Assembly: GCA_017443845.1 (NCBI GenBank)
Contig: JAFSXX010000048.1
Location: 5,823-69,822, forward strand
Length of the DNA stretch: 64,000 bases
Origin: Bacteroidales bacterium
GTDB lineage: Bacteria > Bacteroidota > Bacteroidia > Bacteroidales > UBA932
Direction: 5' to 3'
A program made the translations under genes and the position numbers. This document shows, piece after piece, positions 4,432 to 56,198 of the stretch (position 1 is its first letter; every line of letters begins with the position of its first letter). The notes under the pieces are model-generated. The model was not told the DNA's origin and did not search any database. It saw only the letters and a program-made list of their open reading frames with translations.

Positions 4432-4508
4432 GGCTCCTTAGCTCAACTGAATAGAGCATCTGACTACGGATCAGAAGGTTACAGGTTTGAATCCTGTAGG
4501 AGTCACCA
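4432..4508 (+). tRNA. tRNA-Arg (anticodon ACG), CCA encoded
   Basis: Hand-folded cloverleaf. Acceptor GGCTCCT/AGGAGTC, D arm GCTC/GAGC, anticodon stem TCTGA/TCAGA with loop CTACGGA, T arm ACAGG-TTTGAAT-CCTGT, discriminator A plus CCA. Confidence 0.9.
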
Positions 4509-4532: not shown

Positions 4533-4562
4533 GAACGGCGATGAAATCGCCGTTCTTTTTTA
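4533..4562 (+). terminator. Rho-independent terminator after rplS-tRNA-Arg
   Basis: Stem GAACGGCGA/TCGCCGTTC with loop TGAAA, followed by a T7 tract. Confidence 0.8.
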
Positions 4563-4617
4563 TGTACTTTCGCCGCCTGGAAAGCTAGCTTTCCGAGCGG
4601 CGAAAGTACATAAAAAA
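4556..4617. repeat. 62-bp near-perfect palindrome (T-run/A-run flanked), possible bidirectional terminator
   Basis: TTTTTTATGTACTTTCGCCG (4556-4575) is the exact reverse complement of 4598-4617. The inner GGAAAGCT/AGCTTTCC segment is also palindromic. Confidence 0.8.
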
Positions 4618-4697
4618 GCATGGCAGGCGCCTTGGCGCCTGCCGTGCCCTTCGTGCTCCCCGGACGCTATGCCGTGACGAGGCCCAGGAATGCGCAG

Positions 4698-4730
4698 GCT
4701 TGATGCATTTCTTCTGGAAATGCATCAAGC
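4698..4730. repeat. Perfect 14-bp stem hairpin
   Basis: GCTTGATGCATTTC-ttctg-GAAATGCATCAAGC. It is preceded by another hairpin, GGCAGGCGC/GCGCCTGCC, at 4622-4643. Confidence 0.75.
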
Positions 4731-4789
4731 CGAGCACAATCCTGCAAAGCCCATGCGATTCACCTATCCGAGCACAATCCTGCAAAGCC
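4730..4789. repeat. Exact 22-bp direct repeat, two copies, 38-bp period
   Basis: CCGAGCACAATCCTGCAAAGCC occurs at 4730-4751 and 4768-4789. Each copy is followed by GA(T/A)TCACCT. Confidence 0.85.
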
Positions 4790-5701: not shown

Positions 5702-5785
5702 CCATCCATAAATCCGAGCGATTTTATGGACGGGACGCTCTATTTCGTGCTCCCATCCATAAAATGCGGCGTTTTTATGGACGGG
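5702..5785. repeat. Two tandem copies of a CCATCCATAAA...TTTATGGACGG hairpin between convergent genes
   Basis: Copy 1 is 5702-5733 and copy 2 is 5752-5785. They are probably terminators for the DUF2007 gene (+) and the lipoprotein gene (-). Confidence 0.6.
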
Positions 5786-10614: not shown

Positions 10615-10621
10615 CCGTACT

Positions 10622-10765
10622 GTCAAAGCCTCCGGGACTGGAGCCTTGCCCCGCAGAGGGAGGATTCGATTCGCAGCAGACAAGTTATCCGCGCAGCGGA
10701 TGACGCAGGATGCGAGACTCTACGTCCTCCCACTGCGGGGCAAGCGGAAGCCCGGAGGCTTTGAC
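10622..10765. repeat. 144-bp GC-rich long inverted-repeat element
   Basis: GTCAAAGCCTCCGGG (10622-10636) pairs with CCCGGAGGCTTTGAC (10751-10765). Inner arms CTTGCCCCGCAG/CTGCGGGGCAAG also pair. There is a central small hairpin ATCCGC-gca-GCGGAT. Confidence 0.75.
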
Positions 10766-10773
10766 TGATGTCG

Positions 10774-15653: not shown

Positions 15654-16364
15654 ATGCTGTCGAAGAATGAGATAAAGCGCATCAAGTCCCTCTCGCAGAA
15701 GAAATTCCGCGACGAGGAGGGGCTCTTTATCGTCGAGGGTGAGAAGATGGTGGCCGAGGCGCTCGCTTCGGATTTCGAGGTTGAGGCGGTTTACAGGACA
15801 TCGGAAATAGGCGAGGAGGCGATGGGGCGCATCTCGGCGCTCTCATCGCCTTCGCCCGCCCTTGCGGTGGTGAGGATTCCCGCTTCCGGCGGAATTCCCG
15901 CCCCTGCGGAGGATGAACTGCTGCTGGCTCTCGATTCCCTGCGCGACCCGGGCAATGTCGGAACCATCATCCGCCTCGCCGACTGGTTCGGTATCAGGAC
16001 CATCCTGGCTTCGCCCGATACGGTCGATATCTATAACCCGAAAGTGGTCCAGGCTACTATGGGTGCCATATTCAGGGTCCGGTTCATCTATTGCGACCTG
16101 CCCGCAACGCTCTCGGCGATGCGCGGCCGCGGCATTCCGGTTTACGGTACTTTCCTTGAGGGAGACGATATCTACAAATCTTCCCTGACAAAAGGCGGCG
16201 TGATAGTTATGGGCTCCGAGTCCAATGGCATAGGCCAGGATGTGGCAGCCCTTGTGGACCGCAAACTCTATATCCCTCCGTTCCCTCCGGAGGGCACTGG
16301 CAGCGAATCGCTCAATGTGGCGATCGCTACGGCAATCACCTGCAGCGAATTCCGCCGCAGGTGA
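15654..16364 (+). CDS. TrmH/SpoU-family RNA 2'-O-methyltransferase
   Basis: The C-terminal SpoU-type methylase motifs are present: DPGNVGTIIRLADWFG, VIVMGSESNGI and ESLNVAIATAI. Confidence 0.85.
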   Translation: MLSKNEIKRIKSLSQKKFRDEEGLFIVEGEKMVAEALASDFEVEAVYRTSEIGEEAMGRISALSSPSPALAVVRIPASGGIPAPAEDELLLALDSLRDPGNVGTIIRLADWFGIRTILASPDTVDIYNPKVVQATMGAIFRVRFIYCDLPATLSAMRGRGIPVYGTFLEGDDIYKSSLTKGGVIVMGSESNGIGQDVAALVDRKLYIPPFPPEGTGSESLNVAIATAITCSEFRRR

Positions 16365-16384
16365 AGTAAACAACTTCATTATAA

Positions 16385-16576
16385 AGAAATTAAGCCGAAG
16401 GCTATGGGCCGGCAGGGGGCAATTGCGGAGGGCCGTAGCGAAGCCCGCCATGGCCGCGAGGCGGAGACGGGAGCGAAGCGGTGGGGTCCCGTCGGAGCCG
16501 CGAGACAGGGCGGAGCTGAGTAGGCCCGGGAGCACTTCTTGCCCCCTGCCGGCCCATAGCCTTCGGCTTAATTTCT
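16385..16576. repeat. Long-hairpin element, copy 1: perfect 37-38 bp stem clamping a 116-nt conserved GC-rich core
   Basis: Arm 16386-16422 is the exact reverse complement of 16539-16575. The core 16423-16538 recurs at 53123-53238. Confidence 0.9.
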
Positions 16577-16678
16577 GCGAAAAGTCTCTTGCATACTTGG
16601 GGAACTCTCTTGCAGACTTGGCCAAAGTTGACTAAATTTGCAAGTTATATTGACTATTTGATATTTACTCGAGATATT

Positions 16679-19396
16679 ATGCAGGAAGAACTCTCTGTGA
16701 AGTACGACCCCTCACGCGTTGAGGACAGGTGGTACGCATACTGGATTGACCATAAATTCTTTCATTCCGAGCCTGACGGCCGTGAGCCATACACGATAGT
16801 TATCCCGCCGCCCAATGTGACGGGAGTGCTCCATATGGGCCACATGATGAACAACACCCTTCAGGATGTCCTCATCCGCCGTGCCAGGATGACCGGCAAG
16901 AACGCCCTCTGGGTGCCCGGAACCGACCACGCATCCATCGCCACCGAAGCCAAGGTCGTCGGCAAACTGGCCACTATGGGCATCAAAAAACGTGACCTGA
17001 CCCGCGAGGAATTCCTCAAGTACGCCTGGGAGTGGAAAGAGGAGCACGGAGGCATAATCCTCAAGCAGCTGCGCCGTCTTGGAACCAGCTGCGACTGGGA
17101 CCGCACCGCCTTCACTATGGATGAGGTCCGCAGCGCCGCCGTTATGAAAGTCTTCGTGGACCTTTACCGCAAAGGCCTTATCTACCGCGGACTGAGGATG
17201 GTCAACTGGGATCCCAAGGCGCAGACCGTGCTCTCGACAGAGGAGGTTGTCTATCACGAGGAGAAATCCAAACTCTTCTACCTGAGATATTATGTGGCCG
17301 ATGCCGACACCAACCCCGTGAAGCCCACCGGCGAGGAGGGAGAGGTGCTGCACCGCGACGAAGAGGGACGCTACTATGCAGTGGTGGCCACCACCCGTCC
17401 CGAGACTATAATGGGCGATACCGCTATGTGTATCAACCCCAAGGACCCCAAGAACCAGTGGCTGCGCGGCCACAAGGTCACCGTTCCCCTCGTGGGCCGC
17501 GTGATCCCCGTCATCGAGGACCGCTATGTCGATATCGAATTCGGTACCGGCTGCCTCAAGGTGACCCCGGCTCACGACGTCAATGACTACGCCCTCGGAA
17601 AGGCCCACAACCTCGATACCATCGATATCTTCAACCCCGACGGAACCCTCTCGGAGGCGGCCGGACTCTATGTCGGCCTCGACCGTATGGTGGTCCGCAA
17701 GCAGATATCCAAGGACCTGGAGGCCGCCGGCCTGATGGAGAAGGTGGAGGATTACGACAACAAGGTGGGCTATTCGGAGCGCAACCCCGATACCGCCGTG
17801 GAGCCCCGCCTCTGCAAGCAGTGGTTCCTGAGCATGAAGCACTTTGCCGACATCGCGCTGCCTCCCGTGCTCGAGGGCAAGATCAAATTCCACCCTTCGA
17901 AATATGTTTCGACCTACCGCGCATGGCTCGAGAATATCCAGGACTGGTGCATCAGCCGCCAGCTCTGGTGGGGACACCGCATTCCGGCTTGGTTCCTTCC
18001 CGTGGCCGAGGGAGAGGAGGAGAAATTCGTAGTGGCGCTCTCCGAAGAGGAGGCTCTCGCCGAGGCACGCAAGATCAAGGGCTTCGAGAACATCGGGGCC
18101 GGAGACCTTGTACGCGACGAGGATGCGCTCGACACCTGGTTCTCCAGCTGGCTCTGGCCTATCAGCCTTTTCGACGGCATAGAACATCCCGACAACCCCG
18201 AGATCAAGTATTACTATCCTACCAACGACCTTGTTACAGGCCCCGATATCATATTCTTCTGGGTCGCGAGGATGATTATGGCGGGCGAGGAGTATATGAA
18301 GGACGTTCCGTTCAGGAATGTCTATTTCACCGGAATCGTCCGCGACAAGCTCGGCCGTAAGATGAGCAAGCAGCTGGGCAACTCCCCGGATCCTATCGGA
18401 CTTATCGAGAAATATGGCGCCGACGGCGTCAGGCTCGGCATTCTGCTCTGCACCTCGGCGGGCAACGATATCCTCTTCGACGAGACCCAGGTCGAGCAGG
18501 GACGCAATTTCTCCAACAAGATATGGAACGCCTTCCGCCTTGTCAAGGGGTGGAACACCGCTGATGTCGCGCAGTCGGATGAGTGCCGCGTGGCGGTAGA
18601 ATGGTTCAACGCCAAACTCTCGGCGACCATCGAATCGGTGGACCGCGACTTCTCCAACTTCCGTATCAACGACGCCGTGATGGCTGTCTATAAACTCTTC
18701 TGGGACGACTTCTGCTCGTGGTATCTCGAGCTTGTCAAGCCCGGCTTCGAGAACGGAGTTCAGCGCCCGTTGGACAAGGCTACCTATGATGCTACCATCG
18801 GCTTCTTCGATTCGCTGCTCAAGATGCTCCATCCCGTGATGCCTTTCATCACCGAGGAGCTCTGGCAGAGCATCGAGCCCAGGAAAGAGGGCGAAACGAT
18901 TATGTTGCAGCAGATGCCCAAGGCCGGGAAATACGAACAGGCGGCCATCGATTCCTTCGGAGTCGCATCCGAGGCTGTCGTTGCGATCCGCGCCATCCGC
19001 CAGGGCAAGAACATCCCTCCCAAGGAGGCTCTCAAACTCCAGGTCAAGGGTACTCTTCCGGAGTCCGCCGTACCCGTGGTCCGCAAGATGGCCAATATCT
19101 CGGAAATCACTTCCGTGGAAGGCTTCGAAGGCGGTGCAGGCCAGGCCTTTATGGTGGGCACTCTCGAATTCAACGTGCCCCTCGAGGGAATGGTGAACGT
19201 GGAGGAGGAGAGGGCAAAGATCCTTGCCGAGATCCAGCGTTACGAAGGCTTCCTCCGCGGTGTCAACGCCAAACTCTCGAATGAGAAATTCGTGGCCAAC
19301 GCTCCCGCGCAGGTGGTCGAGCTCGAGCGCAAGAAGCTCTCCGACGCTACCACCAAGATCGAGAACCTCAAAGAAAGACTTAACACACTCAAATAG
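16679..19396 (+). CDS. valS: Valine--tRNA ligase
   Basis: Class I aaRS with the HMGH (HIGH) signature, [10 protein letters not shown] (KMSKS) and a C-terminal coiled coil. The start is set at the [14 protein letters not shown] at 16679. Confidence 0.97.
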
Positions 19397-25935: not shown

Positions 25936-26063
25936 GGGATCCTTGAGTCTCCGCGCTGCCCCATTCCGGAAAGACCCTCCCACGGCTTCGCCGCGGGCCC
26001 CTCCCCGTGGGCCGGGGACGCACACTTTCCGGAACGGGGCAGCGACTGCGACTTAAGGATCCC
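25936..26063. repeat. GC-rich long inverted-repeat element in the divergent GT4/GT4 intergenic region
   Basis: Arm 25936-25973 pairs with 26025-26063. This includes GGGATCCTT.AGTC and GCTGCCCC.TTCCGGAAAG, with an unpaired middle. The 51-nt loop, read in reverse, resembles the loop of the 48.6 kb element (GGAGGGGCCC.CG..GAAG..GGGAGGG). Confidence 0.7.
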
Positions 26064-48530: not shown

Positions 48531-48566
48531 CAAAGGCTGGAGCAACCGCTCCGGCCTTTGTTTGTT
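48531..48566 (+). terminator. Terminator hairpin after the small lipoprotein gene
   Basis: CAAAGGC-t-GGAGC-aacc-GCTCC-g-GCCTTTG is followed by TTTGTT. Confidence 0.6.
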
Positions 48567-48688
48567 CCGGAGACTGGCATATATCCTGAAAACCTGTGGC
48601 CGCCCATGGCCACATGAATGGGAGGGGCCCACGAAGTGGGAGGGACGGAGCGAAGCGGAGGGTTTTCAGGATATATGCCAGTCTCCGG
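48567..48688. repeat. Long-hairpin element: perfect 28-bp stem with 66-nt GC-rich loop
   Basis: CCGGAGACTGGCATATATCCTGAAAACC (48567-48594) is the exact reverse complement of 48661-48688. The loop contains TGTGGCC/GGCCACA and GGGAGGGGCCCACGAAGTGGGAGGGACGGAGCGAAGCGGAG. Confidence 0.85.
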
Positions 48689-48690
48689 GA

Positions 48691-51600
48691 TTATTGCAGG
48701 CCGAGCATCTTGGTCAGGGACTCGATGAGCGCATCGATCTGATCCTGAGAGGAGAGGGCTTCGATGGGGAAGCCGAGGCTGACGGCATTGTAATCCGGAC
48801 CGATGTAGGCGGTGCCTGCGGGGATGTTGTTGTCGTAGCGGAAGATGGTGAACGTATTGCTGTCCGGGACGGGGACTATCGCGTCGGGCGATTCAACGTG
48901 ATAGCGTACGGAGTTGGGGATGGTGTTGAAGGAGTACCGCTCTCCCGCTTTCAGATGGAAGGGGGAGGAGACGCTGTGGAGACCGCCGCCGGCCGTGGCC
49001 TGCGTGTTAAGCCATTTGTACTTGAGGATATTGGTCACGAATGAGATGGCCGGAGCGATATGCTTCCTGATATATGCGGTGTCCGTCGGGAATCCGTAGA
49101 TGGGATCCCAGAGGTCGGAAGCGATGTAGGCGCCCGAAACAAGGAGGTTTCCCCCCGCGGAGGCATATCTCGCGAGCCGGATCTGCAGGTCGACGGGGAA
49201 GACCTCATAGGCCCACCTCGCGCCGCCGTTGCATCCCTTGACGGTGCGGGTCTGCTTTCCGCAGATCAGGTCGATAAGGCTGTAATCCGCATAGGCAGTG
49301 CTGTCTTCGGGGGCGGCATTGGCCCTGGAGGCGGTGCCGTCGCAGAATGCCTCGCGCGAGCAGGAGGAGAACGCCAGGCCGGCCTTGAGCAGCGCCTTGC
49401 CGTGGATATAGGGGAAATCGAACGTATTGCCGGCGACCGGCGTAGTCTCGTATGTGCCTTGAGACGCTCCGAATCCCGCATTGTCGTCATCCATCCACCT
49501 GACGGAGCGGCGGAATTCGAACTGGGGACCGCAGTAGGAGATATCCTCTATGTAGGGTACGCCGCTGTCCACGATATCGAGGAATCCGGCATATAGGGAG
49601 TCCGTGGTCTCGAATGAGAGGGGAGCGCTGACGCGGTCGAAATTGTTGACAATCAGGGCCTTTTTATCGCCGCCTTCGGAGGGCGCCCCGACCGACAGGA
49701 GCTCGGAATCGAAGCTGCGGCCTCCGGCATTGTAAGCGGCCACCTTGAAACTGTAGATGTGCCCCGGTTCGATGGCGATGCGGGCCGAGCTTCCCTCCAC
49801 CGGGATTCCGTTGTCGAATCCGCCGCCGTCGATACGGGAATAGACGATATATCCGTCGGGAGATGCGGTCGGTTCCTGAGGATCTTCCGTAGGCTTCCAT
49901 TTCAGGACAGCGTACAGATGTCCCTCGGAGTCGTCCAGTGCGGCGCTGAAACCGCTTACCGGCAGCGGCTGGACTATGAATCCGGTGTCGTTGAGATAGG
50001 CCAGATACTTGAGGATGCCCTTGTAGATGGCGCGTGATACCACGAACCGGAATCCGGGATCGAGGCCGTAGCGCATGTCGTTGAAATTCTGGTGGGAGAG
50101 GAGTTCCAGTATCATAGCCGGAACTTCGGGTTGGCTGCACTCCGCATAGGCTTTGTCGCGGAGCGAGCGGCGGGTCCAGTGAGGGTCGTACGAGGCCTGG
50201 ATGTCGGAGACTATCTGGGTCTGGACGACATCGGCGTACTCCCTGGCGATATCGCGTTTCTCGCCGTTGGGATAGCGGTCCTTGCCGTTTATGACACGGG
50301 TGAAGATGGCCAGCGTGCCTATGGTCGAATCCCTCGGGGCGATGCCGGCGTCGCTGTGGAATGCGAATGAGAGGTCGATGGGGATATTGTATCCCGGGCG
50401 TCCAGGATTGACATAGGAGCCTCCGGCCAGCGCATTGACCCACTTGGCGCGGCACTGGAAGTCGTCGGTATAATCTTTCTCGAATGCGGTCGGAGAGTAG
50501 ATGGAATCGGTGAAACCGGCCCACTGCAGCCAGTATCTCGAGCCTTCTGCGGCGCGGGGATAACCGGAGGTTTCGGGCAGGACCTCGAACTCGGGGTTCA
50601 GGGGGCTGCGGGCGATGTTGCCGGTGCCGCCTCCGAACTTGACCGCATCGGCGCTCACTATTGCGCCGGCGCTCGAGCCGCTGTTTGTCAGGTAAACGCC
50701 CTGCCCATTGCCGCTTCCCTCGTCGAAATCGAAGAAGCCGAGGCAAATCCAGGTGCCCCCGCCCATCTGCTGGTTGACGGAGAAGAGGGTGGAACCCCCG
50801 CTGTGGCGCACTTTGTAAAGGGCGGTGCGGGTGCTGTTCTCGACGCTTTTGTATGAGATGTAAACGGCATACCGACCCTTACGGGGGAAATCCGGAGTCC
50901 ATCTTGCGGTGCATTCGTTCGCATTGTCGTCCTTTGCGCCGCTGGTCATTCTCGCTGTTCCCATTTCGAATGGATTGTCGCCGTCGAGGTAATATCCGCC
51001 CTTCTGGCCGAATCCGTATCCCGGAGCCACCGACCAGGTGCCCTGTTCGCCGTATCCGGGCTCCCTGCCGTCGTTGTCCACTATTATCTCGGTGGTATTC
51101 CAGTCCCTCTCGCGCGGCAGGAGCACGTTCGCGCCCGCATTCTCGAGCATCGGGAGCAGGAAGGGGATGACATACGATTGGGTGTAAAGGTCCTCTACGG
51201 TCTGCATCAGGCGGCCCCGCTGCCATTCCCACCGCCGGAGCGACTGCTCATAGTAGAATCCGTGGCTCTGCCAGAGGGCGATGTGGCGTCCCTGCAGGCC
51301 GTGGGTTATGGCGTTGGGCTCGGAGAGCCGCGTTATCAGGGGGACGAGCGCAGCCCTTCCGGCAGATGTCTTTTTGATGTGGTCGCGGACGTATGGGTTG
51401 TATCTGTCAGCGGAGAAGTAGCCCGGGATAAGGTCTTCGAGCATCTTGCCGTCGGTGCGGACTGTGACGTTGCCCTTGTAGTCTTTGTATTTGTCGGGAA
51501 GGGTGGCGTCGATTATCGAATAAATGGTATGGAGATGCCGTTGCCTGAGAGGGTATTCGCTCAGAGTGTTGTTGAATATCAGGTTGAGTTTGCCGCCGGA

Positions 51601-51772: not shown

Positions 51773-52159
51773 TTACTTCCTGAAGAGTGTGACCAGGGCT
51801 ATGATGGTGGAGCCGACAGTGACTGCGGCCACGTTGTAGAAGAGGTCCCACGGGTCGGTTGTCCTGTAGGTGGTGATCTTGTCCTGAAGCAGTTCGAATG
51901 CGAAGCAGAAGATGATTCCCGTGATTATGACAAAGACCAGCGAGCGCCATCTGTTCTTGAAATAGAATGCCGCCTGCGCGAAGAACGGGTAGGGGAAGAA
52001 CATCAGGAAGTGGATCACTTTGTCGATGGGGATGCCCCACAGGCTGCGCGGCACTTTGAAGAATGCCGTCGGATGGCCGAAGCAGAGGTAAACCAGGACT
52101 CCGAGGTAGAGGATGAATACGGCTACGGAGGTAATGTGTGCGCTAGCGTTTCTTGACAT
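51773..52159 (-). CDS. VanZ-like family membrane protein
   Basis: 128 aa, 4 TM segments, with DKVIHFLMFFPYPFF and FELLQ motifs typical of VanZ-like proteins. Confidence 0.7.
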   Translation of the reverse strand: MSRNASAHITSVAVFILYLGVLVYLCFGHPTAFFKVPRSLWGIPIDKVIHFLMFFPYPFFAQAAFYFKNRWRSLVFVIITGIIFCFAFELLQDKITTYRTTDPWDLFYNVAAVTVGSTIIALVTLFRK

Positions 52160-53006
52160 AGTTGCCTCTCTTTTTCTGCAGCCTGACGAAGTCGTCTTCG
52201 GCTTTTACCTTGTCGATGATGGTGGTAACGACTTTGTAAATCTCGCTGCCTGCGGAGTAGTCGGCGCGGCAGATGAAATTGACGCGGTTCTGGCGAAGGA
52301 GTTTGTGGGCCGTGTTTTTCTGTTTGAGGTTGTCGTCCTGATAGACGGCGATGGAGTTGCCGCCGAACATCTTGACTATCTTCATGCAGGGGATGTCGGT
52401 CTCCCCGTCGCCGAGGTAGATCATATTGCTGAAGGGGATGGGTTTCTCATCCTCTTTCTGGCTTTCGTTGACCTTCTTGTTGTCGCTGATGTCCATTATG
52501 CCCTTGGCGATCTTGAAGAGGAACTGGGTCTTGCCGGTGTAATCGACAGCCACTGCGGGCCAGACGGCCTTGCCGCTGTCGTCGTACCAGAATGAGCAGG
52601 CGAATATTTTCTTGAACTCCTTGGCGATGGGGGAGCCTTCGATGAGTTCGGTCTGCCCCGAGGAGTTGATGTAATGCTCGACCTTCACCCCGTGCTCGAT
52701 GCCGTACTGGTTGATGAGCGAGAACCACTCCTTGACGCCTTTGTGCAGCTGGATGTTGCGGCCGAAGGAGACGAAGGAGTCGCGGGTGAGGGAGATGCCC
52801 ACCTTCTCGGCCTCTTCGATCATCAGTTTCATATAGGAGAGGATGGAGTTGACCTCCTGCCCCTGTGGATTGACATTGCTCAGTTCCCAGAACTCTTTCG
52901 GGGTTTTGCCGATGGCCTGGATGAAGCCGAACTCCTGCATGTTGCCGGGCGAAAGCGTCCCGTCAAAATCGTAAATCAGCGCCACTGTAGGTTTCTTCCG
53001 TACCAT
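52143..53006 (-). CDS. HAD-superfamily hydrolase
   Basis: The DxDGT motif in VALIYDFDGTLSPGN and the late YLGDGETDIPCM (GDGxxD) motif. The start is set at MVRKKPT (53006). Confidence 0.75.
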   Translation of the reverse strand: MVRKKPTVALIYDFDGTLSPGNMQEFGFIQAIGKTPKEFWELSNVNPQGQEVNSILSYMKLMIEEAEKVGISLTRDSFVSFGRNIQLHKGVKEWFSLINQYGIEHGVKVEHYINSSGQTELIEGSPIAKEFKKIFACSFWYDDSGKAVWPAVAVDYTGKTQFLFKIAKGIMDISDNKKVNESQKEDEKPIPFSNMIYLGDGETDIPCMKIVKMFGGNSIAVYQDDNLKQKNTAHKLLRQNRVNFICRADYSAGSEIYKVVTTIIDKVKAEDDFVRLQKKRGNYVKKR

Positions 53007-53077
53007 ATCAATTAGTATTTTATCTTGCAAAGATAACAAGAAACGATGATGTTACGATAATTATATCTGACATAATA

Positions 53078-53283
53078 AGGTTTATTATCTGGAGCCGGGA
53101 GGCACTTTCCCCCTGCAGGCAATTGCGGAGGGCCGTAGTGAGACCCGCCCTGACCGCGAAGCGGAGATGGGAGCGAAGCGGCGGGGGCCCATCGGAGCCG
53201 CGAGGCAGGGTGGAGCCGAATAGGCCCGGGAGCACTTCTTGCCTGCAGGGGGAAAGTGCCTTCCGGCGGAAATAATAAACCTT
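53078..53283. repeat. Long-hairpin element, copy 2: the same 116-nt core (53123-53238) clamped by different arms
   Basis: Inner arms 53095-53122 and 53239-53266 form 28 bp with 1 mismatch. Outer arms AAGGTTTATTAT (53078-53089) and ATAATAAACCTT (53272-53283) also pair. The core differs from copy 1 by 14 substitutions with no indels. Confidence 0.9.
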
Positions 53284-53284
53284 C

Positions 53285-54187
53285 CTATGACGATTTCCTG
53301 TCGTGGATCCACATCTGTATGGCGTTGACTATGTTCTGGCATATTGAGTAGCAGGCGCAATAGACAGAGGCCAGGGGGTGGAGATAGGTGTTTGCCATCC
53401 AGATGCCGACGGCTGTGTTTTTCTGGAAGAGGAGCTGGCCGCCAGCGATCTTGTCGCCGAAACGCTTTCCGATGGCGCGGCCAGTGAAAAACTGGACGAC
53501 GCAGAGGACGACTGCCGAAGCGGCGAGGATGAGGATGCTGCCGAGATTGCCCTTGCCGTGGAGGAAGATGAAATCGATGGTCTGGCCGAGGCTGATGAAC
53601 AGGACCGTGGCCCAGAGGTAGAACGCGGCCCCTTTGAATCCGGCTATCCTGTCGTTGACTTTGGGTAGCAGAATCTGCAGCAGCAGGGCTGTGAAGAAGG
53701 GGAGGGCTATCATCGTGCCGATGCGCTTGAAGATGGTCCAGAATGAGATCAGGAAGGGAATCTCCCTATGGACTCCGACGAAGGAGAAAATCACCGGGGC
53801 GGCTGCGGCGGTGGCGAGGTTGCCGATTATGGTAAAGGTCGTCACCCTCTGGCGGTCGGCGCCCAGGATGGTGGAAATCACTGCGACTGCAGCCGCAACA
53901 GGGCAGATGATGCCCACGAGGATGCCTTCGGCGATTATCTGGTTGTGGGATATCGACATCACGAGGAGATATCCTCCGATTCCCAGGACGAACTGGACCA
54001 GCAGCAGCCAGGAATCCATCCAGGACGGGCGGAGCTTGCGCAGGTCCACGGCGCAGAAGGTAAGAAGCAGGATTGTGAAAATAATGTATGGCGAAGCCAC
54101 CGCGGCGGCTCCGCAGAACCTATGAAATATGACTCCCAGCAGCAGGGCTGCCGGGAGTACATAACTTCTGTATCGGGTTAGCTGCAT
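53285..54187 (-). CDS. Polytopic transporter, BASS/SBF-like (bile acid:Na+ symporter family) candidate
   Basis: 300 aa with about 9-10 TM segments. The composition and length fit the SBF-like family. The start is set at MQLTRYRS (54187). Confidence 0.45.
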   Translation of the reverse strand: MQLTRYRSYVLPAALLLGVIFHRFCGAAAVASPYIIFTILLLTFCAVDLRKLRPSWMDSWLLLVQFVLGIGGYLLVMSISHNQIIAEGILVGIICPVAAAVAVISTILGADRQRVTTFTIIGNLATAAAAPVIFSFVGVHREIPFLISFWTIFKRIGTMIALPFFTALLLQILLPKVNDRIAGFKGAAFYLWATVLFISLGQTIDFIFLHGKGNLGSILILAASAVVLCVVQFFTGRAIGKRFGDKIAGGQLLFQKNTAVGIWMANTYLHPLASVYCACYSICQNIVNAIQMWIHDRKSS

Positions 54188-54191
54188 CTTG

Positions 54192-56198
54192 TCAGAGAGC
54201 CGGTTCCTCCGTTGCGGGCTCCGCTGCCGGTTCGGCCGCGGCATCGACAGCTGCGGGCTCTTCGGTAATGACCTCCTCGATCACCACTTCCTCTACGTGA
54301 GGCTTCTGCCAGGGCAGGCGCTTGTTGCAGATCCAGAAGGCGGCGATGGCGAGGACCAGCAGGATAAGGCACCAGCGGAGGATATGCCTCCAGAGAGGAG
54401 TCTTCTTGCGGAAAGGATCCTTGCCCTTGACCTTGGGATACTTGGCGAGATGAGTGAGGGTGGAGCCGAACTGGGTGTTGACCAGGACGCGGGAGTTGAT
54501 GGCCCATCCGTTGGCGTTGAGCACCGGAGCGAGGTTGCGCTTGCGGAGTTTGAGCCATGCCAGGAGCATCGAAGGACCGGAGATGAGCAGGATGATGGCT
54601 GCGATGAGGACGAATATTCCCCACCAGGGCATCTTGATGATACTGTCGAGGAGACCTACGACAGCGTCGAGGATGAAGCCCAATGCCATGCCGATGGCTG
54701 CGAAGATGCCGGCGAACTTGGCGATGTCGAAGGCCTGCTTCTTGGCAGCGCCCTCGTCGGGGAGTTTTGCTCCGTCAGCTTTGGCTACCAGATCCTGCGT
54801 GGCCTTGTTGTCGCGGTCCTCTGCACTCTTGTTGAGCTTGTCGGTGCACCACTTGGCGAATTTGCGATAAGGGGACCAGAAGGCCTGCGGCACGCTGATG
54901 GGGTTGTCCACGATCTTGGTGACGGTGGCGTCCCAGTCGTGTCCGTCGCGGTCGTAGAAGATGGCGTTCTGGCCTACGCTCAGGCTGCGGGTGTTGCCCT
55001 CGGTGACTATGCCTGCGATATCCATCTCCTTTCCGAGAACCTTGGAGACGCAGTGGCAGTAGAGGATGAACATTCCGCTCTTGGCGGCCATATCGCCGTG
55101 GCGTCCCATATCGGTCACACGGACGCAGAGGTCGAGGCTGCGCTCGTCGATAAAGAGCTTGCCGGACTGGAATACTGCCAGGCGGGCTTCGTCGCGGGAA
55201 TAGAAATCGGAGAATGTGACGAAATTCTTGAGGAAGCGGAAGAAGTCGCGGTAGAGATGCAGGAACTTGTCCACTCCCTTGATGGTCTCGGCCTCGGCCT
55301 TCTGGCTCTCGAGGAACTCGTCCTCCTCCTTCTTGACCTCATCCTTCCAGGCGGTATAGGTCGCCAGTTTGGCCTGGACGGCCTGCCAGTCGGCATCGGT
55401 AAGGGTGGCGGCGCCGGGATAGTCCTTGTCGAAGGCGATGGCCTTCAGGCGGGCGAAATCGGCGGCCCAGGCTGGGTTGATGACCGCCGAGAGGGAGAGG
55501 GCCTGGTCGCCGCTGACGCGGGCGAGGGGATATGTGGCAATCTCGTCGATGCAACCGGGAAGCTCCTTGTCGCTGATGGCGCCGATGCGCTCGGCGGAGA
55601 CATCGAGGGCCGCGGTGCTCTCGCTGTCGAAAGCGGCCAGCTTGCTGCGCAGGAAGTAATCGTCGATCTTGGCTTTCAGCTTGCCGGCGAGGGCGAGCGC
55701 CTCTTCGGTGTCGGCGCCGTAGGGGAGGACATCCTCACCCGCCGCCTTGGCCTCGGCTGCCGCCTCGGCCAGTATTCCGAGGGCTTTTGCTGTGTCGGCC
55801 AGGGAGATCGATTCGTGCTCTTCGCCGAGGACCTTTGCGGCATTGGAGATGCCTTCGAGAAGCGCCTTGCCTGCATCGGAGTCGGGATTGATGGCGTCGG
55901 TGGAGATGAAATCCTCTCCGGCCAGTAGCGAGTCGGGGCTCTTGAGGGCGGCGACCAGCCACTTCGACGCTTCTATGACCTCGTTGACGTGGATGTGCCC
56001 GTCGTTATTGCTGTCGATGTACGCGAGAGTGGTTTCGTCGAACTCGAAACCCGTTGTGGGACAGCTAAGCGCGGTCCATAACTTCTGGTCCAGCTCGCCG
56101 AGGTGGGCGATGTCCTCGCCGGTCTCGATGTTGACTCTCGTGACCCCTCCGATCTTGCTGAATTTCCAGTTGTACTTGTTGGATTTTGTCTTGCTCAT
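54192..56198 (-). CDS. Hypothetical 668-aa protein: N-terminal canonical EF-hand loop, large Ala/Glu/Asp-rich soluble region, three C-terminal TM helices, acidic Pro-rich tail
   Basis: DSNNDGHIHVNE (nt 55980-56015) matches the EF-hand D-x-N-x-D-G-x-I-x-x-x-E loop. TM candidates are FAGIFAAIGMALGFILDAVVGLL, WWGIFVLIAAIILLISGPSMLLAWL and ILRWCLILLVLAIAAFWI. The start is set at MSKTKSNKYNW. Confidence 0.7.
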   Translation of the reverse strand: MSKTKSNKYNWKFSKIGGVTRVNIETGEDIAHLGELDQKLWTALSCPTTGFEFDETTLAYIDSNNDGHIHVNEVIEASKWLVAALKSPDSLLAGEDFISTDAINPDSDAGKALLEGISNAAKVLGEEHESISLADTAKALGILAEAAAEAKAAGEDVLPYGADTEEALALAGKLKAKIDDYFLRSKLAAFDSESTAALDVSAERIGAISDKELPGCIDEIATYPLARVSGDQALSLSAVINPAWAADFARLKAIAFDKDYPGAATLTDADWQAVQAKLATYTAWKDEVKKEEDEFLESQKAEAETIKGVDKFLHLYRDFFRFLKNFVTFSDFYSRDEARLAVFQSGKLFIDERSLDLCVRVTDMGRHGDMAAKSGMFILYCHCVSKVLGKEMDIAGIVTEGNTRSLSVGQNAIFYDRDGHDWDATVTKIVDNPISVPQAFWSPYRKFAKWCTDKLNKSAEDRDNKATQDLVAKADGAKLPDEGAAKKQAFDIAKFAGIFAAIGMALGFILDAVVGLLDSIIKMPWWGIFVLIAAIILLISGPSMLLAWLKLRKRNLAPVLNANGWAINSRVLVNTQFGSTLTHLAKYPKVKGKDPFRKKTPLWRHILRWCLILLVLAIAAFWICNKRLPWQKPHVEEVVIEEVITEEPAAVDAAAEPAAEPATEEPAL

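Follow-up and report, generated by a model that had tools for sequence, protein, structure and literature searches.

A conserved tip on locus-specific stems: a candidate family of hairpin-forming intergenic DNA repeats in Bacteroidales

We analyzed a 64-kb stretch of Bacteroidales DNA (the window), in which two long intergenic hairpins, copy 1 and copy 2, carry near-identical cores on unrelated arms. In the reading that we prefer, and to which we give about even confidence, copy 2 belongs to a small family of intergenic DNA repeats that are non-coding, form hairpins and are shaped by template switching in uncultured gut and rumen Bacteroidales. Most likely, the element is a DNA repeat, selfish or neutral, that is flipped, trimmed and re-paired during replication, rather than a new RNA gene. 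The unit common to the loci is a GC-rich, purine-skewed module of ~125 nt, closed by GCAA/TTGC and located at the tip of a locus-specific inverted repeat; the full element is predicted to be able to snap back into a hairpin or cruciform of ~190-220 nt.

Results

Architecture of the two window copies

Copy 2 is flanked by two minus-strand genes, one encoding an SBF/BASS-like transporter (53285-54244; a weak match to PF01758), the stop codon of which marks the start of the element, and the other a HAD-like hydrolase (52143-53006), which has its own TAtcTTTG promoter box downstream of copy 2 (53036-53029, minus strand). The conserved core (53123-53238, with the G- and purine-rich strand on plus) forms an imperfect rod and includes a central stem, GATGGG (53166-53171) paired with CCCATC (53188-53193). 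It is framed by two locus-specific 29-nt arms (53094-53122 and 53239-53267), which lie 116 nt apart and are complementary at 28 of 29 positions (97%), the sole mismatch being a G.T; only the terminal GCAA of the left arm is common to the other copies. Beyond the arms follow two asymmetric bulges, CTGGA (53089-53093), which serves as an inversion marker relative to the L037-type strains described below, and GGAA (53268-53271), which separates the right arm from an outer 18-nt inverted repeat of 89% (53071-53088, CATAATAAGGTTTATTAT, with 53272-53289). The right half of this repeat overlaps the transporter stop codon (53285-53287), and within it lies an outer 12-nt pair, AAGGTTTATTAT and ATAATAAACCTT, at 53077-53088 and 53272-53283. 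Inverted-repeat detection thus recovered both the arms and the outer pair that had been proposed for copy 2 in an initial, sequence-only reading of this DNA. That reading also let copy 2 start 1 nt past the transporter stop; the element does begin near the stop, but the outer pair begins at 53077, which makes the proposed start one base late.

Copy 1 has perfect 38-nt arms (16385-16422 and 16539-16576, complementary at 38 of 38 positions) around a core at 16423-16538, again with the G-rich strand on plus. A TrmH/SpoU-family RNA methyltransferase gene (15654-16364, plus strand) ends with its stop codon 20 nt before copy 1, and the valyl-tRNA synthetase gene valS (16679-19396, plus strand) lies downstream. 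Just past copy 1, a 21-nt tandem duplication at 16594-16614 (TCTCTTGCATACTTGG GGAAC TCTCTTGCAGACTTGG) is present in the window and in contigs L015 and L016, and absent from L019, L027, L028 and L045. Several short-k-mer Logan contigs (L017, L018, L020 and L043) terminate within the arms or core of copy 1. We attribute these breaks to the 38-nt perfect inverted repeat, which is longer than the assembler k-mer (presumably 31), so that a break need not imply a high copy number.

The two copies are related by a direct repeat of 126 nt (16418-16543 and 53118-53243; 89% identity, BLAST E = 2e-43 within the window), and their arms are unrelated in sequence to each other. Repeat detection and BLAST therefore agree with the proposal that copy 2 is a second copy of the core set between different, unalignable arms. 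The GC content of the core is 67-73%, and that of the 64-kb window 55.6%. As also proposed, the core is inverted between the two loci relative to the gene upstream: at copy 1 its G-rich strand runs in the sense direction of the TrmH-family gene, and at copy 2 it is antisense to the gene of the transporter.

Further members of the family

Two additional loci bring the family to four DNA loci overall, two of them within the 64-kb window. The third (L023 3581-3709, the same locus as in L024) was found by scanning metagenomes for an 18-mer that forms part of the 5' core end, and the fourth (L034 2354-2482) by searching a protein collection with a spurious ORF called on the core. At each of them the core is 77% identical and the arms are again different, those of the third locus being imperfect as well. 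When 1.84 billion representative proteins were searched exhaustively with a profile, only two more members emerged, both ORF-derived. With just four DNA loci known, this may be a rare family.

Each of the four loci is intergenic, and outside the core they have only the closing GCAA...TTGC in common. No arm was found a second time anywhere else in the DNA examined, which led us to reject the idea that the arms belong to other repeat families. Three ORF-derived sequences (P0122, P0123 and P0124) share RSG(L)CALR just before AIAEGR, which indicates that ~24 nt of 'arm' are conserved within a subfamily that includes the L034 copy. At the outer and inner boundaries of copy 1, copy 2 and the L023 and L034 copies, direct repeats of the kind left by target duplication are absent; a target duplication, or a duplication of CCTGCAGG at copy 2, was considered and rejected because it fails to generalize to copy 1. 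No recombinase or transposase domain was detected with Pfam among the genes called within 3 kb.

Searches with other tools returned no relatives. When the whole window was compared with Rfam 15, only two tRNAs reached the gathering score, and positions 53050-53310 gave no match at E <= 10. The covariance model R1 detected no additional copy in the window or in 26 loci, the minus-strand frame of the core found nothing as a protein query, and no copy was found in the viral contigs, plasmids and phages searched. A scan of 185,579 species genomes with the word GCCCGGGAGCACTTCTTG gave 14 matches, all of them chance matches in unrelated phyla; because this word differs in the L023 and L034 copies and in the L037-type strains, and so misses half of the known copies, the negative is weak and says little about distribution.

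Fold, covariation and strand asymmetry

Each core is an imperfect rod that continues its arms. The folding energy of the whole element is -129 kcal/mol for copy 2 and -140 kcal/mol for copy 1 (z about -10); the core alone, folded as ssDNA, has the stability of a shuffled sequence (z about -0.7).

The pairs of this fold covary among the aligned copies. Across eight sequences from four loci, 91.8% of 256 pair cells are standard, versus 33-37% when the partners are slid, and five of 32 pairs have changed on both sides. The covariation score reaches 0.157, compared with 0.101 for shuffles, none of which (0 of 500) attains the observed value. The change on which the sequence-only reading had rested its case, C16468-G16491 in the copy 1 stem GACGGGA (16466-16472)/TCCCGTC (16487-16493) becoming T53168-A53191 in copy 2, is a true double change. 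The consensus fold contains two others between copy 1 and copy 2, A16442-T16517 to G53142-C53217 and C16439-G16520 to T53139-A53220. These three doubly changed pairs, among 14 differences in 126 nt and 32 pairs, compare with a chance expectation of about 0.1-0.4 by an arithmetic estimate. The second case put forward in that reading, G16443-C16511 to A53143-T53211, is possible, with 90.6% of its cells paired, but ambiguous: a rival 8-bp register over the same columns, mutually exclusive with it, scores slightly better (93.8% paired, two pairs changed on both sides). Compensatory change is equally a product of replication template switching in DNA hairpins (PMC8794818), and covariation is therefore insufficient evidence for an RNA here.

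The two strands of the core are not equivalent. In every copy, 85-87% of the unpaired core positions are purines on the G-rich strand. Folded as RNA, this strand is 9-15 kcal/mol more stable than the other in all copies, with z of -1.8 and -2.6 versus -1.0 and -1.6; shuffled sequences also show a strand difference of 5-7 kcal/mol, so that about half of the gap is compositional. A G.T pair (alignment columns 22/105) is kept uncorrected in all eight sequences. The purine bias of the unpaired positions is not expected from random decay of a DNA palindrome and points to a constraint on one single strand, RNA or ssDNA.

Flips, deletions and arm changes among strains

Contigs whose flanking proteins are the same or closely similar gave a population view of both hairpins. 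Seven contigs are the same as the window at the copy 1 locus. L027, the flanks of which are 97.4% identical, has the core in reverse complement between the same arms, and no more than two substitutions accompany the change. The SNPs that mark its arms have remained on their sides, placing the exchange within the inner ~9 bp. L045 carries the same inversion. An assembly artefact was considered as the source of the inversions and rejected for L027, in which the longest perfect repeat at copy 1 measures 18 nt, too short for an assembler to have flipped the core arbitrarily, and for the k87 contigs; the rejection is less secure for L045, where coverage is low and a perfect repeat reaches 31 nt.

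Two more distant strains keep both arms of copy 1 and have lost most of the core. In L028 (TrmH protein 92% identical), the core is reduced to GGGAGCACTTC beside the right arm, the deletion being joined at a GGG microhomology, and in L046 (TrmH protein 83% identical) the same end of the core lies, inverted, beside the left arm. The copy 1 hairpin is thus old, and its core can be dispensed with and has undergone at least one flip. The arms have changed in step: between the window and L046, CTATGGG/CCCATAG corresponds to CAGCAGG/CCTGCTG, a difference of four adjacent pairs that are all compensated, and the L028 arm represents a half-converted, mismatched intermediate state. The phylogeny of the flanks switches across copy 1, as a comparison of window positions 16340-16720 with L027 and L028 shows. 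On the upstream side, L027 is the sister of the window, and L028 stands far apart with 126 unique sites; on the downstream side, L027 and L028 hardly differ and it is the window that deviates, which indicates a recombination breakpoint at or near the hairpin. Because of this switch, we abandoned an argument from ancestral states that would have read the arm changes of the window as 'corrections'.

At the copy 2 locus, contigs with a HAD protein 100% identical fall into two haplotypes. L035, L036 and L038 resemble the window, and in L037, L039 and L040 the entire hairpin is inverted. The bulges CTGGA and GGAA swap sides in the latter type, which locates the crossover in the outer repeat (53071-53088/53272-53289). 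Besides orientation, the haplotypes differ by about six substitutions; since orientation tracks haplotype in this way, flipping appears to be rare and not rapid. The different crossover depths at the two loci argue against a fixed recombination site.

The comparison of orthologous regions suggested in the sequence-only reading therefore uncovered polymorphism, namely the flips at both loci and the loss of the core in L028 and L046, but no empty site, that is, arms without a trace of the core. More distant relatives, with a TrmH protein 76-82% identical, were uninformative at the orthologous sites, gene order having changed.

Other hairpins in the window

Three more long hairpins with other G-rich cores occur in the window, at 48552-48703, 25943-26060 and 10620-10767. 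The first two, the second of which lies on the minus strand, have one core type (family B), which recurs in a relative at L029 4963-5120. In family B, to which positions 1-60 of L033 also belong, the core reads TGTG...GGGAGGGGCCC, followed by a small hairpin with a GAA loop and then GGGAGGG; the long arms are unrelated between loci, and their innermost bases match at two loci (AAACC/GGTTT). The string ACGG(G)AGCGAAGCGG is common to the family-B cores and to the family of copy 1 and copy 2 (family A). The element at 10620-10767 has a third core type and occupies a convergent intergenic site between a gene of 383-386 aa and a phosphofructokinase gene. At the same convergent site, L029 (4925-5124; TrmH protein 82% identical) has a family-B element with different arms, and its arm repeat includes the T-tract of the small terminator of the upstream gene together with an inverted A-tract copy.

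The density of elements in the window is roughly one per 13 kb, and a layout of conserved tip and variable stem appears to be a property of this genome lineage. Near one end of the window, a 76-nt near-perfect palindrome (4549-4624), the 38-nt arms of which are 89% complementary and adjoin without a spacer, follows a tRNA gene (4432-4505) at a distance of ~45 nt, with direct repeats nearby at 4720-4789 and 5702-5785; these look like further hairpin-rich intergenic DNA.

Genomic context and alternative explanations

The positions of the four copies bear most directly on the alternative of a cis-acting structured RNA, in which the stem would act as a transcript-end hairpin (a terminator, 3' stabilizer or insulator) and the purine-rich core as a protein-binding or processing module. 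Copies 1 and 2 begin 0-20 nt past a stop codon and upstream of the next gene's own promoter, as such an RNA would. Copy 1 has a T-rich 3' stem end (TTAATTTCT), and the succession of A-rich, GC-rich and T-rich sequence in its arms resembles a bidirectional terminator. The covarying pairs, the better folding of the G-rich strand in every copy, the GGA/GGAG motifs that this strand carries in internal loops and the share of purines among unpaired bases (about 86%) point the same way. However, the transcript would have opposite orientations at the two window copies and would flip between close strains, copy 2 has no trailing U-tract on the transcribed strand, the core was lost twice with its arms retained, no Rfam family matches even at E <= 10, and about half of the folding-energy gap between the strands is compositional. 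Furthermore, neither the L023 nor the L034 copy is at a gene end; both lie between divergently transcribed genes, the L034 copy sitting between both promoters, two perfect TAnnTTTG boxes. This motif is the Bacteroidetes -7 promoter consensus. We accordingly hold an RNA of this kind to be unlikely, with perhaps a fifth of our confidence. The sequence-only reading had weighed RNA, mobile and DNA-level explanations against one another; the facts that it cited are right and the covariation is real, but its hint of an RNA is weakened and the data favor the DNA level, given the flips in near-identical strains, the two core losses, the loci between divergent genes and the lack of an Rfam match.

We give the same low weight to a second alternative, in which the core is a mobile or self-propagating module that homes to hairpin tips, or builds a palindrome from its flank once inserted, and in which selection acts on the folded single strand. 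Such selection is suggested by internal loops made up of purines only and by the conserved G.U pair. A module of this type could be an ssDNA transposition substrate, or an RNA with orientation-dependent transcript fates.

Somewhat less probable still is a specific version of our main DNA-repeat reading, in which the element is a non-autonomous ssDNA element moved by an HUH tyrosine transposase of the REP/RAYT or IS200/IS605 type that is encoded elsewhere. This enzyme would recognize the folded G-rich strand and insert it beside GCAA, with a preference for hairpin tips exposed on the lagging-strand template. Such a route would fit the lack of terminal inverted repeats and target duplications, the GCAA that is invariant on the left flank of all four loci and the strand-specific constraint seen in the purine-biased unpaired bases. 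Two GTAG motifs adjoin GC-rich stems in the element, and a GTAG motif beside a GC-rich stem is characteristic of Escherichia coli REP sequences. The G-rich strand is also the strand of positive GC skew for both family-A copies and for one of two family-B elements, but this bias comes from very few elements and is undone by inversions. Moreover, the transposase is putative, the DNA examined being limited to the 64-kb window and to short contigs; GCAA/TTGC may be no more than the closing helix of the element itself, and the copy number seen is low.

The presence of both orientations at both loci among near-identical strains is what a programmed inverton would produce, with a site-specific recombinase flipping the segment to alter the expression of the neighboring genes, and Bacteroidales are reported to be rich in invertons (PMC11892184, PMC11602134). 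Nonetheless, we consider this improbable: the inverted repeats are wholly different between the loci, the crossover depth varies from the inner ~9 bp at copy 1 to the outer 12-18 bp at copy 2, orientation follows haplotype as if flipping were rare, and no recombinase was found among the called neighboring genes. The core also has no TAnnTTTG or TTTG box and no coding switch; the neighboring genes have their own boxes outside the element.

Finally, a small protein gene is very improbable and was rejected: the frame AIAEGRSEA...GAARQGGAE* is open, of the same length and ended by the same TAG in all four copies, gene callers annotate ORFs of 39-132 aa over the core, and eight of the 14 differences between copy 1 and copy 2 fall on third codon positions, but copy 2 has no in-frame ATG, GTG or TTG ahead of the conserved part, it is the variable arm that contains the start codon, which disappears once the core flips, differences between the L023 and L034 copies spread over the codon positions as 3/3/4, two other frames are also open, as expected at 70% GC, and the excess at third positions corresponds to a binomial P of about 0.06, uncorrected for six frames. 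The ORFs of 39, 53, 62 and 132 aa called across the core, for example L015 3751-3870 (window 16404-16523) and P0121-P0124, are almost certainly spurious annotations.

Discussion

A DNA repeat remodeled by template switching is the reading that we prefer for copy 2 and its relatives. The core may have passed from locus to locus as a copy, either transposing into the tips of hairpins or moving through ectopic conversion; what suggests this is that a core of 89% identity stands beside unalignable arms and is demonstrably dispensable. Since the core is near-identical, the arms cannot be aligned and the core can be deleted or flipped, recent copying is a simpler account than selection since an ancient duplication.

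Once in place, the hairpin would be remodeled by replication template switching between its arms, a mechanism that we infer from the behavior of quasipalindromes and from published work in which single template-switching events make stems perfect, alter several pairs at once in a compensatory manner or invert loops while leaving no footprint in the stem (PMC8794818). Switching would keep the arms complementary, or make them so, by copying several bases at once; it would also flip the tip or the whole hairpin and delete the tip at microhomologies. Block-compensated arms, flips and microhomology deletion of the tip are all found in this analysis. Where the hairpin follows a stop codon, as in copies 1 and 2, it probably also provides the stem-loop at the end of the transcript, and the core itself would have no sequence-specific cellular function.

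The element resembles hairpin-forming intergenic repeats, such as REP/REPIN sequences, MITEs and organellar GC clusters, and we place it with them as a variant in which the tip is conserved and the stem is local; the family is undescribed so far. The REP/BIME and REPIN sequences of Proteobacteria, which are mobilized by RAYT, are likewise GC-rich, imperfect intergenic palindromes that often lie past stop codons, form hairpins and occur in either orientation, and REP sequences have a GTAG beside a GC-rich stem, as does the Bacteroidales element. In REP and REPIN sequences, however, the stem itself is conserved and copies number tens to hundreds, whereas here the tip is conserved and the basal 30-40 bp differ at each locus. 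REP sequences also form doublets, in contrast to the single rod of the Bacteroidales core, for which the host is different and no RAYT gene was seen. With the bacterial MITEs (Correia/CREE, ERIC, RUP, BOX and Nezha), the element shares a non-coding, hairpin-forming, multi-copy and intergenic nature at 100-250 bp, as well as presence/absence and deletion variants between strains. The definition of a MITE nevertheless calls for conserved terminal inverted repeats and a target-site duplication, and the Bacteroidales element has neither of them at its four loci.

Hairpin inversions by template switching (PMC8794818) share footprint-free flips, adjacent pairs that change together and stems made perfect. 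They are a mutational process and not an element family, the reported loops are mostly 4-8 nt versus 116-180 nt here, and template switching by itself, which accounts for the behavior of the arms and for flipping, leaves unaccounted for the same 125-nt tip on four unrelated hairpins. The 'minute inversions' of chloroplasts are comparable inversions of hairpin loops. Like the invertons of Bacteroidales, the element comprises a segment bounded by inverted repeats and found in both orientations within the same order; invertons, in contrast, have family-specific repeats recognized by an invertase and a promoter, whereas here the repeats are locus-specific, the crossovers vary and neither a promoter box nor a recombinase was seen. 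The GC clusters, double-hairpin elements and repetitive hairpin-forming elements of mitochondrial genomes (PMC2800124 for the last) are likewise short, GC-rich and often nested hairpin modules, which spread through intergenic DNA and are not known to have an enzyme of their own. These elements are organellar, much shorter and unrelated in sequence, so that the comparison is by analogy only.

Should the purine pattern stem from a genuine function of the single strand, a new RNA or ssDNA element would be at hand, and if the core does home to hairpin tips, or build a palindrome around itself, it would define, together with the other G-rich cores of the window, an undescribed class of elements with conserved tip and variable stem in Bacteroidales. 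If our preferred reading of a DNA repeat is right, copy 2 and its relatives would provide a natural example of hairpin covariation without RNA function, and a caution for pipelines that discover RNA motifs. They would also represent an unusual kind of repeat, in which the tip is conserved and copied and the stem is local, raising the question of how a hairpin tip spreads. Finally, they would be a source of small structural polymorphism (inversions, deletions and recombination breakpoints) between strains of gut and rumen Bacteroidales, of a type that can break short-k assemblies and trigger spurious gene calls.
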